Shown: piece by piece, positions 7,479 through 37,448 of the stretch | How the letters are laid out: every line of letters begins with the position of its first letter | How positions within the stretch are numbered: position 1 is the first letter of the stretch | From: Escherichia coli | GTDB lineage: Bacteria; Pseudomonadota; Gammaproteobacteria; Enterobacterales; Enterobacteriaceae | NCBI RefSeq assembly: GCF_041886205.1 | Contig: NZ_CP169029.1 | Strand: one strand, 5' to 3' | DNA length: 64,000 nucleotides | The notes under the pieces: model-generated | Database searches by the model: none | What the model was told of the DNA's origin: nothing | The model's input: the letters and a program-made list of their open reading frames with translations, nothing else | Translations under genes and position numbers: made by a program

Positions 7479-7508
7479 CCTCTTTGCCGGGGGCGCTGCG
7501 CTTGCCCT

Positions 7509-7580
7509 GCCTACATTAGAGCGTAACTGCAATGAATTGTGCCCATTTGTAGGCCTGATAAGCGTAGCGCCATCAGGCAT
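7509..7580. repeat. REP/BIME-like palindromic element between ynjI and gdhA
   Basis: gtaggcctgataagcgtagcgccatcaggc at 7550-7579 matches the E. coli REP consensus; preceded by an inverted gcctac...gtaggc segment. Confidence 0.7.
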
Positions 7581-7587
7581 TTACAAC

Positions 7588-8931
7588 TTAAATCACACCC
7601 TGCGCCAGCATCGCATCGGCAACCTTCACAAAACCGGCAATGTTCGCGCCCTGCACGTAGTTGGTTTGCTCACCTTCACCACCATGCTCAACACAGGCAT
7701 GGTGGATATCCAGCATGATGTGATGCAAACGTGCGTCAACTTTCTCGGCTTTCCAGCCCAGGCGCGCAGCGTTTTGCGCCATTTCAAGGCCTGACGTTGC
7801 TACACCGCCAGCATTAGCCGCTTTACCCGGTGCAAACAGTACGCCTGCCTGCTGGAACAGTTCAGTCGCTTCGATGGTGGTCGGCATATTTGCCCCTTCG
7901 GCGACGGCTTTAACGCCATTGGCGATAAGCTGATGCGCGGCGTCAACATCCAGTTCGTTCTGGGTGGCGCAAGGCAGGGCGATATCAACCGGTACAGACC
8001 ACGGCTGTTGGCCTTCGAGATAGACCAGACCAAATTCTTTGGCGTAATCAGCCACTCGACCATCGCGGCTGGCTTTGATTTCGATAAGGCGTGCCAGTTT
8101 CTCTTTCGTGAATCCGCTTTCATCAACTACAGTGCCGCTGGAGTCTGACGCAGTGATCACACGAGCACCAAATTCCATCGCTTTTTCGATAGCGTACTGG
8201 GCGACGTTGCCGGAGCCAGAAACGGAAACGCGCATCCCTTCAAAACCCATACCGTGGCGTTTTAACATTGCTTCTGTGAAATAAACCAGACCGTAGCCGG
8301 TAGCTTCCGGGCGAATAAGACTGCCGCCAAATGAAAGGCCCTTACCGGTGAAGACGCAGGAGGTATTGTTGGAGAGCTTTTTCATCATCCCCGCCATAAA
8401 GCCGACTTCACGACCACCAACCCCGATATCACCTGCCGGAACGTCGGTATCCGCGCCCAGGTGGCGATACAGTTCAGTCATCAGCGCCTGGCAAAAACGC
8501 ATCACTTCACCTTCGCTTTTTCCTTTCGGATCGAAATCGCTGCCGCCTTTACCACCGCCCATCGGCAGAGTAGTCAGGGCATTTTTGAAGGTTTGCTCGA
8601 AGCCGAGGAATTTGAGAATGGAGAGGTTAACTGACGGATGGAAGCGCATACCGCCTTTGTACGGGCCGATGGCAGAGCTGAACTGCACACGCCATGCACG
8701 GTTGACCTGTACCTGATTGCGATCATCAACCCATACCACGCGAAACTGGATCACGCGCTCCGGTTCAACCAGACGCTCCAGTAATGACATCTGGCGATAT
8801 TTTGGATTTTGTTCAAGAAAAGGCCAGAGTGTGGTCATTACTTCACGAACGGCTTGCGCGAACTCGGTTTGATTCGGGTCGCGCTTTTGGACATGGTTGA
8901 GGAATGACTCCAGAGAATATGTCTGATCCAT
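7588..8931 (-). CDS. gdhA: NADP-specific glutamate dehydrogenase, 447 aa
   Basis: ORF track 7588..8931; MDQTYSLESFLNHVQKRDP...; GGGKGG active-site motif present. Confidence 0.95.
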   Translation of the reverse strand: MDQTYSLESFLNHVQKRDPNQTEFAQAVREVMTTLWPFLEQNPKYRQMSLLERLVEPERVIQFRVVWVDDRNQVQVNRAWRVQFSSAIGPYKGGMRFHPSVNLSILKFLGFEQTFKNALTTLPMGGGKGGSDFDPKGKSEGEVMRFCQALMTELYRHLGADTDVPAGDIGVGGREVGFMAGMMKKLSNNTSCVFTGKGLSFGGSLIRPEATGYGLVYFTEAMLKRHGMGFEGMRVSVSGSGNVAQYAIEKAMEFGARVITASDSSGTVVDESGFTKEKLARLIEIKASRDGRVADYAKEFGLVYLEGQQPWSVPVDIALPCATQNELDVDAAHQLIANGVKAVAEGANMPTTIEATELFQQAGVLFAPGKAANAGGVATSGLEMAQNAARLGWKAEKVDARLHHIMLDIHHACVEHGGEGEQTNYVQGANIAGFVKVADAMLAQGVI

Positions 8932-26285: not shown

Positions 26286-27786
<1,501 letters not shown>

Positions 27787-27883
27787 TGTTGACTCCGAAT
27801 GCTGGTTATCTATCCAGTGTAACAGGCGGGGGGCGATTAAAAAAGAGGCGGGTTGATGACAAAGGTTACACCGTCTGACGTGC

Positions 27884-27973
27884 TACGCCTGTCAGGCCTA
27901 TTCGACTCCTGCAATGTATTGAATTTGCAAAGTTTTACAGGCCGGATAAGACGCTTACGCCATATCCGGCATG
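27884..27973. repeat. REP/BIME cluster between cho and nadE
   Basis: acgcctgtcaggcctat and caggccggataagacgcttacgccatatccggcatg flank a ctgcaatgtattgaatttgcaaagtttta linker. Confidence 0.75.
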
Positions 27974-28020
27974 TATAAAGTGTTTGGTGTCGACAATCTC
28001 AGGCGGGGAGGCCGCACTGT

Positions 28021-28848
28021 TTATTTTTTCCAGAAATCATCGAAAACGGTAATTGGTGGACGGCGTTTATGTTCGGTTTTCAGATACCAGTTCTCTATTG
28101 TTCTGGCGACCTGTTCAGGTACGTTTTTCCCTTCCAGATAGTCGTCGATATTGTCATAGGTCACGCCGAGTGCCACTTCATCTGGCAGAGAAGGTCGATC
28201 ATCTTCCAGATCGGCCGTTGGCGCTTTCTTATAAAGGTGTTCCGGGCAACCTAATGCCGCCAGTAACTGTTTACCCTGACGTTTGTTGAGACGATACAGT
28301 GGATTAATGTCCGTACCGCCGTCACCATATTTAGTGAAGAATCCGGTAATGGCTTCTGCTGCATGATCGGTGCCCACCACGACACCGCCGGTCATACCCG
28401 CAATGCTATATTGTGCTTTCATCCGCTCACGCGCTTTTTCATTGCCACGGACAAAATCGCTCAGTTCAATGCCTGCTTCCCGCAATGCCTGCTCGCTGGC
28501 CAATACCGCGCCCTTGATATTAACGGTTAATACGCGATCCGGTTGAATAAAGGCAATGGCATCCTGGCAATCTTGTTCGTCGGCCTGAACACCATAGGGC
28601 AGGCGTACGGCAATAAATTGCAGTGATTCGTTGCCGGTTTCCTGGCGCAGCTCATTAATCGCCATCTGGCACAGCTTTCCGGCAAGCGTGGAGTCCTGAC
28701 CGCCGCTGATCCCGAGCACCAGTGATTTAATGAACGGATAAGTTCGCAGGTAGCTTTTCAGAAAATCGATACTACGACGAATTTCCTCTTCAGCATTAAT
28801 CTGCGGTTTTGCGCCCAGCGCCTTTATTATTTGTTGTTGCAATGTCAT
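28021..28848 (-). CDS. nadE: NH3-dependent NAD+ synthetase, 275 aa
   Basis: ORF track 28021..28848; PP-loop [12 protein letters not shown]. Confidence 0.95.
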
Positions 28849-34158: not shown

Positions 34159-34929
<771 letters not shown>

Positions 34930-34939
34930 GTGAGGATGT

Positions 34940-35131
34940 TTGCCAGATGCGGCGTGAACCTTGCATCCAGCGATTAATTCCTACAAAGGCGGCGTAACTG
35001 CGCCGCTTGAGACTGCTGACAAACGCAAAACTGCCTGATGCGCTTCGCTTATCAGGCCTACGTTTTTCCTGCAATATATTGAATTTGCACAGTTTTGTAG
35101 GCCGGATAAGGCGTTCACGCCGCATCCGGCA
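34940..35131. repeat. REP/BIME cluster between chbG and katE
   Basis: ctgcctgatgcgcttcgcttatcaggcctac (35031-35061) and gtaggccggataaggcgttcacgccgcatccggc (35097-35130) around a ctgcaatatattgaatttgcacagtttt linker almost identical to the one at 27903-27936. Confidence 0.75.
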
Positions 35132-35159
35132 TAAACAAAGCGCACTATGTAAATCATTT

Positions 35160-35183
35160 GAGGCGGCGCAATTGCGCCGCCTC
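35160..35183 (-). terminator. GC-rich hairpin abutting the katE stop (probable katE terminator)
   Basis: Perfect palindrome gaggcggcgcaattgcgccgcctc 3 bp from the katE stop; flanking U-run is weak. Confidence 0.5.
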
Positions 35184-35186
35184 CCA

Positions 35187-37448
35187 TCAGGCAGGAATTT
35201 TGTCAATCTTAGGAATGCGTGACCACACGCGGTGTGCTGCCATCAGCGTTAGCAGTTCATCCATAAAACTACCGTCAGCGCTGTCAGCTTCCACAATCCC
35301 TTCTTCACCCTGGTCAGCGACCTTGATTGTTGCTTTAAACTTGCGCGCGTCTCCCGCCAGCGCAATCGGTTTAAGGTGTTTGTAGGCTTCCATCAGGTAG
35401 TAGTTGGCATCGCCGTTGTCAGCGATATCCGCGATATTGCCGCAAGGGACAATGACCGCATCGACCGTCAGCGAAGGTGCACCGGCAAAGGTAGCGGCTA
35501 TAGGCAACACCGTACCGTCATCCGCAGTCACTTCACCCATTCGGGAGTAGAGCAGTTTGGCATGAACGCCTTTGGCCTTCAGGGCCTTGAGAATGGCCAG
35601 AAGGTCTGCCGATCTCACTTCATCATTAAGTAAAATCGCTACCACGCGACCTTTCACATCACCGTCAGGAATGGCGTACAAACTTAAGGATGGATCCTTT
35701 TTCAGACCGTTGACGTCCGGAGGTGGGGTGATATTCAGCTGGTCGTCAGTCAGTTCGATACCGAGATTTTTCGCCACCGCCTGGGCCAGAGTGAGATCAA
35801 TATGCGCCAGCTGGTCAACAACGCGCTCACGAATATACGGACGAACGACTTTGCTTAACTCAAAACTGAAACCATCGACAATATGGCGCTGCTCGAATGG
35901 CGTCTGACTTAGCCAGAACAGACGCGGATGGGAATAATATTCGCCAAACGATGGGCTGCGCTCGCGAACTTTATTTCCTTCCACGCGTTCCTGATATGAT
36001 TCAAAACCGCCGCGTTTCGGTCCCGGCGGTGTTTCGCGCGGCCAGTTATCGTTGATCGAGTTCGGTTCGTAATTCGCCGGGTTAGTGTCGATCCCCATAC
36101 GATGCATGCCATCACGCTGGAAGTTGTGGTAAGGGCAGGTCGGACGGTTAATCGGAATCTCATGGAAATTCGGCCCACCAAGACGACTGATTTGTGTATC
36201 GGTATAGGAGAACAAACGTCCCTGCAACAGCGGATCGTTGGTGAAGTCCAGACCAGGAACAATATGACCTGGATGGAATGCTGCTTGTTCGTTTTCGGCA
36301 AAGAAGTTATCCGGATTGCGATTGAGCACCATTTTGCCGACACGCTGAACGGGCACCAGTTCTTCCGGGATCAGTTTGGTTGGATCGAGAAGATCGAAGT
36401 CGAACTTGAATTCATCTTCTTCAGGAATCAACTGGAAGCCCAGTTCGTATTCCGGAAAATCGCCTGCTTCAATGGCTTCCCACAACTCGCGGCGGTGGAA
36501 GTCCGGGTCACGTCCGGTGAGTTTTTGTGCTTCATCCCAAACGAGTGAGGCTTTACCTGCCAGTGGTTTCCAGTGGAAACGTACAAACGTTGCCTTCCCT
36601 TCGGCATTAATCAGGCGGAAGGTGTGAATACCGAAGCCTTCCATGGTGCGGTAACTGCGGGGGATGCCGCGATCCGACATCGCCCACATCACGTTGTGCA
36701 GAGTTTCAGGTTGCAGAGAAACATAATCCCAGAAAGTATCGTGGGCACTTTGCCCTTGTGGAATTGCCCAGTGCGGTTCTGGTTTTACCGCATGAACAAA
36801 ATCGGGGAATTTATGCGCATCCTGGATAAAGAAGATTGGCGTGTTATTGCCAACGAGGTCAAAAATACCCTCTTCAGTATAGAACTTGGTGGCAAAACCA
36901 CGGATATCACGCACGGTATCGGCAGAGCCAGCGCCACCCTGAACGGTAGAGAACCTAACAAATACTGGGGTGATTTTGTTCGGATCTGAGAGGAAATCCG
37001 CTTTGGTGATATCGCTTAAGCTTTTATATGGCTGGAAATAACCGTGAGCTGCTGATCCGCGTGCATGAACAATACGTTCCGGGATGCGCTCATGGTCAAA
37101 GTGGGTGATTTTCTCGCGCAGAATAAAATCTTCCAGCAGCGTTGGACCACGGTTACCGGCACGCAGTGAGTTTTGATCATCGGCGATGCGCACGCCCTGA
37201 TTAGTGGTCAGCGCATAATTTTCACTGCCTTTGCGTACGTCTTCCAGAGAATTAAGTTTTTCGTTACGTGTATCAGGGGCTTTCAGGCTCCCAGGGGCGG
37301 TAGGTTGTGCACCTGGCGGTGTTGGTTCAGCCGCTGGACGATGAGATCCGTCCTCAGGTGCCAGTGAGTCCATCCCCGGTTTCGCTTCGCTGGAATCGTG
37401 TAGTGGTGACTGGTGCTGATGTAGGTTCTTTTCGTTATGTTGCGACAT
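35187..37448 (-). CDS. katE: Catalase HPII, 753 aa
   Basis: ORF track 35187..37448; large-subunit heme catalase with C-terminal flavodoxin-like domain. Confidence 0.95.

Follow-up and report, generated by a model that had tools for sequence, protein, structure and literature searches.

Two intergenic REP clusters of Escherichia coli, at nadE-cho and chbG-katE, are very probably BIME-1 copies that share a conserved L linker with a putative IHF site

BIME-1 elements are composed of a z1-type and a y-type REP that are kept apart by a well-conserved long linker, L, which frequently carries a site for IHF (Ton-Hoang 2012, PMC3333891). The L linker is the IHF-binding part of BIME-1 according to this work and likewise according to Nunvar 2010 (PMC2817692) and Delihas 2011 (PMC3184786). 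For the connection between BIME-1 and IHF, the latter two papers cite Boccard & Prentki 1993 and Oppenheim et al. 1993. In the literature on this family the element has been proposed to act as a topological barrier. The second well-described type, BIME-2, consists of y and z2 REPs with a short S linker and is organized in tandem arrays (PMC3333891), and the affinity of gyrase for BIME-1 is lower than for BIME-2 (PMC6379681, PMC2817692, PMC1475751). BIME-1, also named RIB or RIP, and its IHF site have been known since the early 1990s, and the two loci described here are a real but already known feature.

Both loci are located in a stretch of 64,000 nucleotides of the E. coli chromosome (the window), which is reversed with respect to K-12 MG1655 at ~1.80-1.85 Mb. 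Three REP clusters, located at 7.5, 27.9 and 35.0 kb, were the only ones detected when REP arms and linkers were compared by BLAST with the whole window. The second of these (locus 1) occupies the spacer between nadE and cho, the third (locus 2) the spacer between chbG and katE. Both are intergenic and each harbors one REP pair that is not repeated in tandem, i.e. a single extragenic unit as described for BIME-1. The two elements are also present in K-12, where the linkers correspond to positions of about 1,816,226-1,816,245 (chbG-katE) and 1,823,372-1,823,391 (nadE-cho). An earlier note on this DNA had placed the REP clusters at convergent gene ends. This is correct for chbG(+)/katE(-), as well as for ynjI(+)/gdhA(-) at 7.5 kb, but not for locus 1, where nadE and cho are co-directional on the minus strand and the element lies 3' of the nadE stop (28021) and ahead of the cho start (27786). 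The features of both loci are the following:

27859..27871, plus strand: left flank of locus 1, gacaaaggttaca (family consensus acaAAcgcaAaAt), inside the whole-element profile match
27872..27901, plus strand: y-type REP of locus 1, inverted (iREP), ending in ..CAGGCCTAT and partly decayed relative to the consensus TGCCTGATGCGCTACGCTTATCAGGCCTAC
27902..27936, plus strand: L linker of locus 1, 35 nt (core TGCAATGTATTGAATTTGCA, 27910-27929)
27894-27935, minus strand: match to RF02751 at locus 1, 45.1 bits
27912..27924, minus strand: match to the IHF consensus at locus 1, ATTCAATACATTG, 12/13 to WATCAANNNNTTR
27937..27971, plus strand: z-type REP of locus 1, ACAGGCCGGATAAGACGCTTACGCCATATCCGGCA, beginning with ACAGGCCGGATAAG..
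27972..27989, plus strand: decayed right flank of locus 1, tgtataaagtgtttggtg (consensus tgAACAaaGcgcActttg), with the profile aligned to position 144 of 145
34938..34987, minus strand: decayed z-like REP remnant just 3' of the chbG stop, profile E = 3.5e-4, BLAST 18/19 to the z arm
35019..35031, plus strand: left flank of locus 2, gacaaacgcaaaac, inside the whole-element profile match
35032..35061, plus strand: y-type REP of locus 2, inverted, TGCCTGATGCGCTTCGCTTATCAGGCCTAC
35062..35096, plus strand: L linker of locus 2, 35 nt (core TGCAATATATTGAATTTGCA, 35070-35089)
35054-35096, minus strand: match to RF02751 at locus 2, 55.4 bits
35072..35084, minus strand: match to the IHF consensus at locus 2, ATTCAATATATTG, 12/13, preceded by an A-tract on this strand
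35097..35131, plus strand: z-type REP of locus 2, GTAGGCCGGATAAGGCGTTCACGCCGCATCCGGCA, same as the family consensus
35132..35149, plus strand: right flank of locus 2, taaacaaagcgcactatg, inside the whole-element profile match

Both loci read ..CCTA(C/T), followed by 35 nt and (G/A)(T/C)AGG.., so that two inverse REPs direct their GTAG/CTAC ends towards the linker. The left arms (GCCTGATG / GTCTGACG and ..TCAGGCCTA) are y-like, with T/A at the diagnostic stem pair, and the right arms (GGCCGGAT..ATCCGGC) are z-like (z1 or z2). The assignment of the arms to y and z follows this stem pair, which we take to be the rule that distinguishes the types. Folding yields a separate hairpin for each arm at locus 2 and on the plus strand of locus 1. 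The y REP of locus 1, which has the same sequence in K-12, forms its own hairpin on the plus strand and in the centroid structure. Each element is built from a left flank, a y-like REP, the 35-bp L linker, a z-like REP in opposite orientation, with the GTAG/CTAC 'heads' of both REPs facing the linker, and a right flank.

The earlier note had stated that the two loci share a near-identical internal linker, and formal comparison bears this out. The degenerate 28-mer ctgcaat(g/a)tattgaatttgca(a/c)agtttt occurs exactly at 27909-27936 and at 35069-35096, and the window contains no third match with up to three mismatches. The pattern was found 0 times in 100 dinucleotide-preserving shuffles, i.e. 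none is expected by chance. Self-alignment, which had been proposed as the check, gave 28/30 identical positions at a significant E = 9e-8 when one linker was compared by BLAST with the window. A profile of the linker alone, derived from other genomes, recovered both linkers at about E = 2e-8 (2.5e-8 for locus 1 and 1.7e-8 for locus 2). A profile of the whole element matched end to end, including the flanks, at 35017-35154 (E = 8e-45) and at 27856-27998 (E = 4e-31). Thus the homologous unit comprises ~140 bp; BIMEs are indeed present at 27884-27973 and 35031-35131, as had been noted before, but the true units are wider than these ranges. The description of both loci as BIMEs with an L-type linker is supported by the whole-element profile, by the linker length of 35 nt and by the definition in the literature. 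One additional weak match of the linker profile, at 28611-28628 on the minus strand (E = 0.04), is positioned within the nadE coding sequence and was taken as chance.

The linker belongs to a repeat family with many copies per genome. In BLAST searches of 5425 E. coli genomes with the 38-nt linker without arms, the number of detectable places per genome had a median of 20, with ~33 in K-12-type strains, and among the matches listed these places fall outside annotated features. The taxonomic range was scanned with the exact core pattern TGCAATNNATTGAATTTGCA in species-representative genomes. Among the matches listed, the core is present in multiple copies in E. coli, E. albertii, E. whittamii, two further Escherichia and three Pseudocitrobacter species. 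The matches listed from unrelated taxa are single and lack REP arms, which indicates that they arose by chance.

The 89 enterobacterial copies have a common layout, consisting of acaAAcgcaAaAt, TGCCTGATGCGCTaCGCTTATCAGGCCTAC, ~8 variable nt, the core, n-g-a-t-TTT, GTAGGCCGGATAAGGCGTTcACGCCGCATCCGGCA and tgAACAaaGcgcActttg. The flanks are common to these copies although the search pattern did not select for flanks. The family alignment was ascertained via 18 specified core bases, and conservation of the core therein is partly by construction; the BLAST copy count and a set of pairs anchored on the arms lessen this bias without removing all of it. In ~1.15 Mb of DNA, all head-to-head REP pairs spaced 25-35 nt apart harbor the L linker or a variant of it with 1-3 mismatches, with one exception, a 25-nt linker (locus L011) that resembles a remnant of L. 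The polarity of the linker relative to its arms is fixed. A core on the plus strand is accompanied by y-to-z order in 29/29 pairs and a core on the minus strand by z-to-y order in 32/32.

Tandem L-linker BIMEs were observed in Escherichia sp. MOD1-EC7003, with seven units at a 107-bp period, four at 115/230 bp, five at 162 bp and five at 115 bp (L073 2719-3380, L075 7909-8503, L076 13968-14635 and L082). Such arrays would count as 'atypical BIMEs', as BIME-1 is described as single-copy. The array in L073 additionally gives matches to Rfam naRNA4 (RF02564), which span its tail-to-tail junctions. Whole BIME-1 elements of the Escherichia type were furthermore encountered on tiny contigs assigned to Alkalicoccobacillus porphyridii (L018, 720 bp, coverage ~1), Methylobacterium frigidaeris (L060, 261 bp) and a Collinsella MAG (L066, 3.9 kb). 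Contamination with E. coli or mis-binning is the most likely origin of these three.

The putative IHF site ATTCAATAnATTG on the z-to-y (minus) strand agrees with the IHF consensus WATCAANNNNTTR at 12/13 positions in 89/89 copies and at both loci of the window, where the match is written ATTCAATA(C/T)ATTG on the minus strand. The version at locus 2, ATTCAATATATTG, is the commonest in the family (52/89 copies). At locus 1, an A-tract AAAA (plus-strand tttt at 27933-27936) is positioned 8 nt upstream of the IHF match on the same strand. The corresponding T-tract before GTAGG, i.e. an A-tract on the IHF strand, was unconstrained by the search pattern and reads TTTT in 50 of the 89 copies. The second free position of the core is a T in every one of the 89, and the 8 nt adjoining the y arm vary freely across the family. 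The earlier designation of the L linker as a known IHF-binding part of BIME-1 is in agreement with this 12/13 consensus in all family copies and with the literature (PMC3333891, PMC2817692).

Both loci are very probably copies of BIME-1 (RIB/RIP), with linkers that resemble each other by common descent and are kept as a putative IHF site. The near-identity of the two linkers would then reflect their origin within one repeat family. The constancy of the linker would be due to binding of the DNA-bending protein IHF to an A-tract, ATTCAA, 4 nt and TTG on the z-to-y strand. From published BIME-1/RIB work we infer that IHF would bind at these two loci as well. According to the literature on the family, IHF would bend the linker DNA and cause local bending or topological insulation, and the REP hairpins would protect the 3' end of mRNA or attenuate transcription.

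Alternatively, the main role of the elements might be exerted at the RNA level by the REP arms, which would stabilize or attenuate the transcripts of nadE, chbG and katE at their 3' ends, with the linker being a passenger. Two stable REP hairpins were predicted per element on both strands, with z-scores of -2.5 to -4.9, and a consensus scan of 27600-28200 and 34800-35400 predicted no intrinsic terminator in the nadE-cho or the chbG-katE spacer. REP and BIME sequences have been reported to stabilize upstream mRNA and to attenuate transcription (PMC3333891, PMC12306157). However, a passenger linker leaves unexplained why its polarity is fixed and why the IHF consensus is intact in every copy, whereas the 8 nt adjoining the y arm are free to change. 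Furthermore, at locus 1 the linker of the window differs from that of K-12 at 1/35 positions and the z arm at 9/35, with the y arm being identical. A role confined in this way to the arms is possible but rather unlikely. Roles at the RNA level and in IHF binding are not mutually exclusive.

It was also considered whether the linkers are sRNA genes of the family RF02751 (ES036/CssrF) on the minus strand, in which case conservation would result from RNA function. The 43-nt model aligns full-length to the minus-strand linker and the first bases of the y arm at both loci, and with 55.4 and 45.1 bits it exceeds the gathering threshold of 37.6. In Northern blots of S. flexneri 301, CssrF gave a band of ~290 nt that was assigned to the dacB/yhbZ spacer (Peng et al. 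2011, PMC3071730). The minus-strand linkers fall within the 3' regions of katE and nadE in sense orientation, and hence are probably transcribed as part of them. However, among 13 unrelated loci, which come from five species, RF02751 matches the BIME-1 linker at 12, and in each case on the z-to-y strand. RF02751 therefore effectively describes the L motif and not a single gene. The ~290-nt band far exceeds the 43-nt model, and consensus scans of 27600-28200 and 34800-35400 found no promoter-like or relevant terminator-like site adjoining either element, which is a weak negative.

The hairpin of RF02751 is likewise not reflected in the family. In its outer stem 32% of cells are paired, which equals the shuffled expectation (1077/2000 shuffles reach the same value), and all three outer pairs are formed in just 1/89 copies. 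In the inner TGCAA/TTGCA stem, 9/9 natural variants alter one side only and thereby disrupt a pair, and compensatory changes are absent. The linker is conserved at the level of sequence and not of RNA structure, and this pattern, without covariation, is that of a protein-binding site in DNA and not of a structured RNA. It is very unlikely that the linkers represent sRNA genes; matches to RF02751 at such places should be read as the L linker of BIME-1 and not as evidence for an sRNA gene. Two other Rfam-type matches at gathering level were observed in the window, the Phe leader RF01859 (75 bits, 52817-52941, plus strand) and the enterobacterial sRNA STnc540 RF02082 (67 bits, 56781-56939, plus strand).

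The earlier note had moreover named L linkers as known gyrase sites, but the literature does not bear this out. Gyrase does bind REP/BIME DNA generally, with some affinity for BIME-1 observed in gel shifts (PMC1475751, PMC3184786), and every BIME-1 contains a y-type REP, the type preferentially cut by gyrase (PMC6379681). A function of the L linker itself as a binding or cleavage site of gyrase is nevertheless highly improbable. High affinity and cleavage in vivo are attributed to BIME-2 (z2 + y, short linker, tandem) and, within BIME-2, to y REPs, and cleavage takes place in REP loops and stem mismatches and not in linkers (PMC6379681, PMC2817692, PMC1475751). At IHF sites, gyrase cleavage is slightly less frequent than expected (PMC6379681). 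Neither locus has the architecture of BIME-2, each having a single REP pair and a long L.

The cluster at 7.5 kb had been connected with the two others through ctgcaatgaattg, which was thought to be related to the L linker. It comprises the following feature:

7485..7579, no strand assigned: separate REP pair at ynjI/gdhA, not of the L family, with a decayed y-like arm (7485-7514), a spacer of 34 nt (7515-7548) and a y REP (7549-7579)

A REP pair is present there, and ctgcaatgaattg lies within its spacer, at 7527-7539 and not at 7529-7541 as had been given. The proposed relationship to L fails in all comparisons made. The spacer 7515-7548 had no BLAST match to the other linkers at E <= 5, and it was not among the linker-profile matches of the window, which were listed up to E ~28. 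Its alignment with the L consensus scored 6, a value reached by 749/5000 shuffles (15%) and by 932/9079 real 34-mers of the window (10%). The best match to the IHF consensus has three mismatches, compared to one at loci 1 and 2, and the spacer occurs at one place per genome, in 3502/5426 E. coli genomes. The whole-element profile matches this locus with E ~1e-10 to 1e-12, but without preference for either strand, which is what the palindromic REP arms alone would give. Thus the cluster at 7.5 kb represents an independent REP pair whose spacer is specific to this locus, and it should be kept out of the BIME-1 grouping. If a deletion of 5 nt is assumed (CTGCAAT-----GAATT), the spacer can plausibly be aligned by eye as an L linker, but this was rejected, as the alignment is no better than chance and the spacer is repeated nowhere.

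The arms at 7.5 kb are located 6 nt from the stop of a ynjI-like ORF (7478) and 8 nt from the gdhA stop (7588-7590), and they pair with each other to form one long hairpin. REPs within 15 nt of a stop codon have been reported to stall terminating ribosomes, as cited in PMC12306157. The arms of this pair lie inside that distance.

The two BIME-1 loci differ in their distribution among E. coli genomes. The element between nadE and cho is present in all 5425 matching genomes. The allele carried by the window is rare; when 27640-28170 was compared, 8 genomes were at least 99% identical and 5415 were 90-95% identical. The segment from the right flank to the nadE stop (27990-28020) is unrelated to the K-12 sequence. 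Orthologous copies occupy the corresponding position in both E. whittamii and Escherichia sp. E1V33. In the nadE-cho region of Escherichia sp. MOD1-EC7003 (L080 1635-2156), tblastn aligned cho from residue 145 onward only. The BIME-1 there lacks the y arm, and its L core adjoins sequence without REP features. This suggests that a deletion ending in or beside the linker removed the 5' half of cho.

The spacer between chbG and katE is dimorphic in E. coli, with alleles of 257 bp and 46 bp. The 257-bp allele, found in ~1930/5425 genomes (~36%), corresponds to 34930-35186 of the window and contains the decayed REP, a GC hairpin (34989-35006), the BIME-1 and a second GC hairpin, the perfect palindrome GAGGCGGCGCAATTGCGCCGCCTC (35160-35183). 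The z-like remnant at 34938..34987 is part of this allele and is missing from the 46-bp allele. The latter, which occurs in O157:H7 and other strains, is unrelated and forms one long hairpin, AAGGTCACTCCCCAGGGGACGTGACCTT (L122 451-496; L123 1451-1496). The final codons of chbG also differ between the spacer alleles. The 46-bp allele was considered as a clean 'empty site' that would mark the ends of an insertion, and this was rejected, as the whole spacer consists of unrelated sequence.

Upstream of cho, the sequence ctggttatctatccag (CTG-N10-CAG) is found at 27802-27817, 16 nt from the start codon. We take it to be the LexA (SOS) box of cho/ydjQ. The IHF core of the nadE-cho BIME-1 is centered ~100 bp upstream of this putative LexA box. 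This copy might have been co-opted by the SOS-regulated cho promoter as a constant part of its architecture, since it is present in all matching genomes compared to ~36% for the chbG-katE copy, has orthologues in E. whittamii and E1V33, and has a linker that is near-invariant between the window and K-12 (1/35) compared to 9/35 in the z arm. Co-option nevertheless appears improbable. If it had taken place, bending by IHF could insulate cho from nadE read-through or modulate the induction of cho.

As BIME-1 and its IHF site are already described, the value of these loci for discovery is small. Their value lies in annotation, where both spacers can be labeled as BIME-1 repeats.

Compared to known systems, the two loci share with BIME-2 the y-type REP and the general alternation of REP and iREP. 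However, BIME-2 elements are tandem and have S, l, r or s linkers, whereas the loci of the window are single and have an L linker of 35 nt. The reference high-affinity IHF site is H' of lambda attP. The H' sequence used for comparison is reportedly that of the DNA in the crystal of Rice et al. 1996. With this sequence the linkers share an A-tract, 8 nt, a WATCAA-like hexamer, 4 nt and TTG, all on one strand. When anchored on the core, identity to this reported H' sequence amounts to 19/35 at locus 2 and 17/35 at locus 1. The hexamer of BIME-1 is ATTCAA, in contrast to TATCAA in H', and its A-tract has a length of 4 nt instead of 6. The closest relative is BIME-1/RIB/RIP itself, with which both loci share the inverse y and z REPs, the long L linker with an IHF consensus, the single unit, the extragenic position at 3' ends of genes and the presence of tens of copies per genome. 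No essential difference from BIME-1 was found; at locus 1 the y arm and the right flank are partly decayed, and this copy, compared to the usual BIME-1, is located upstream of a promoter, that of cho, as well as downstream of nadE.
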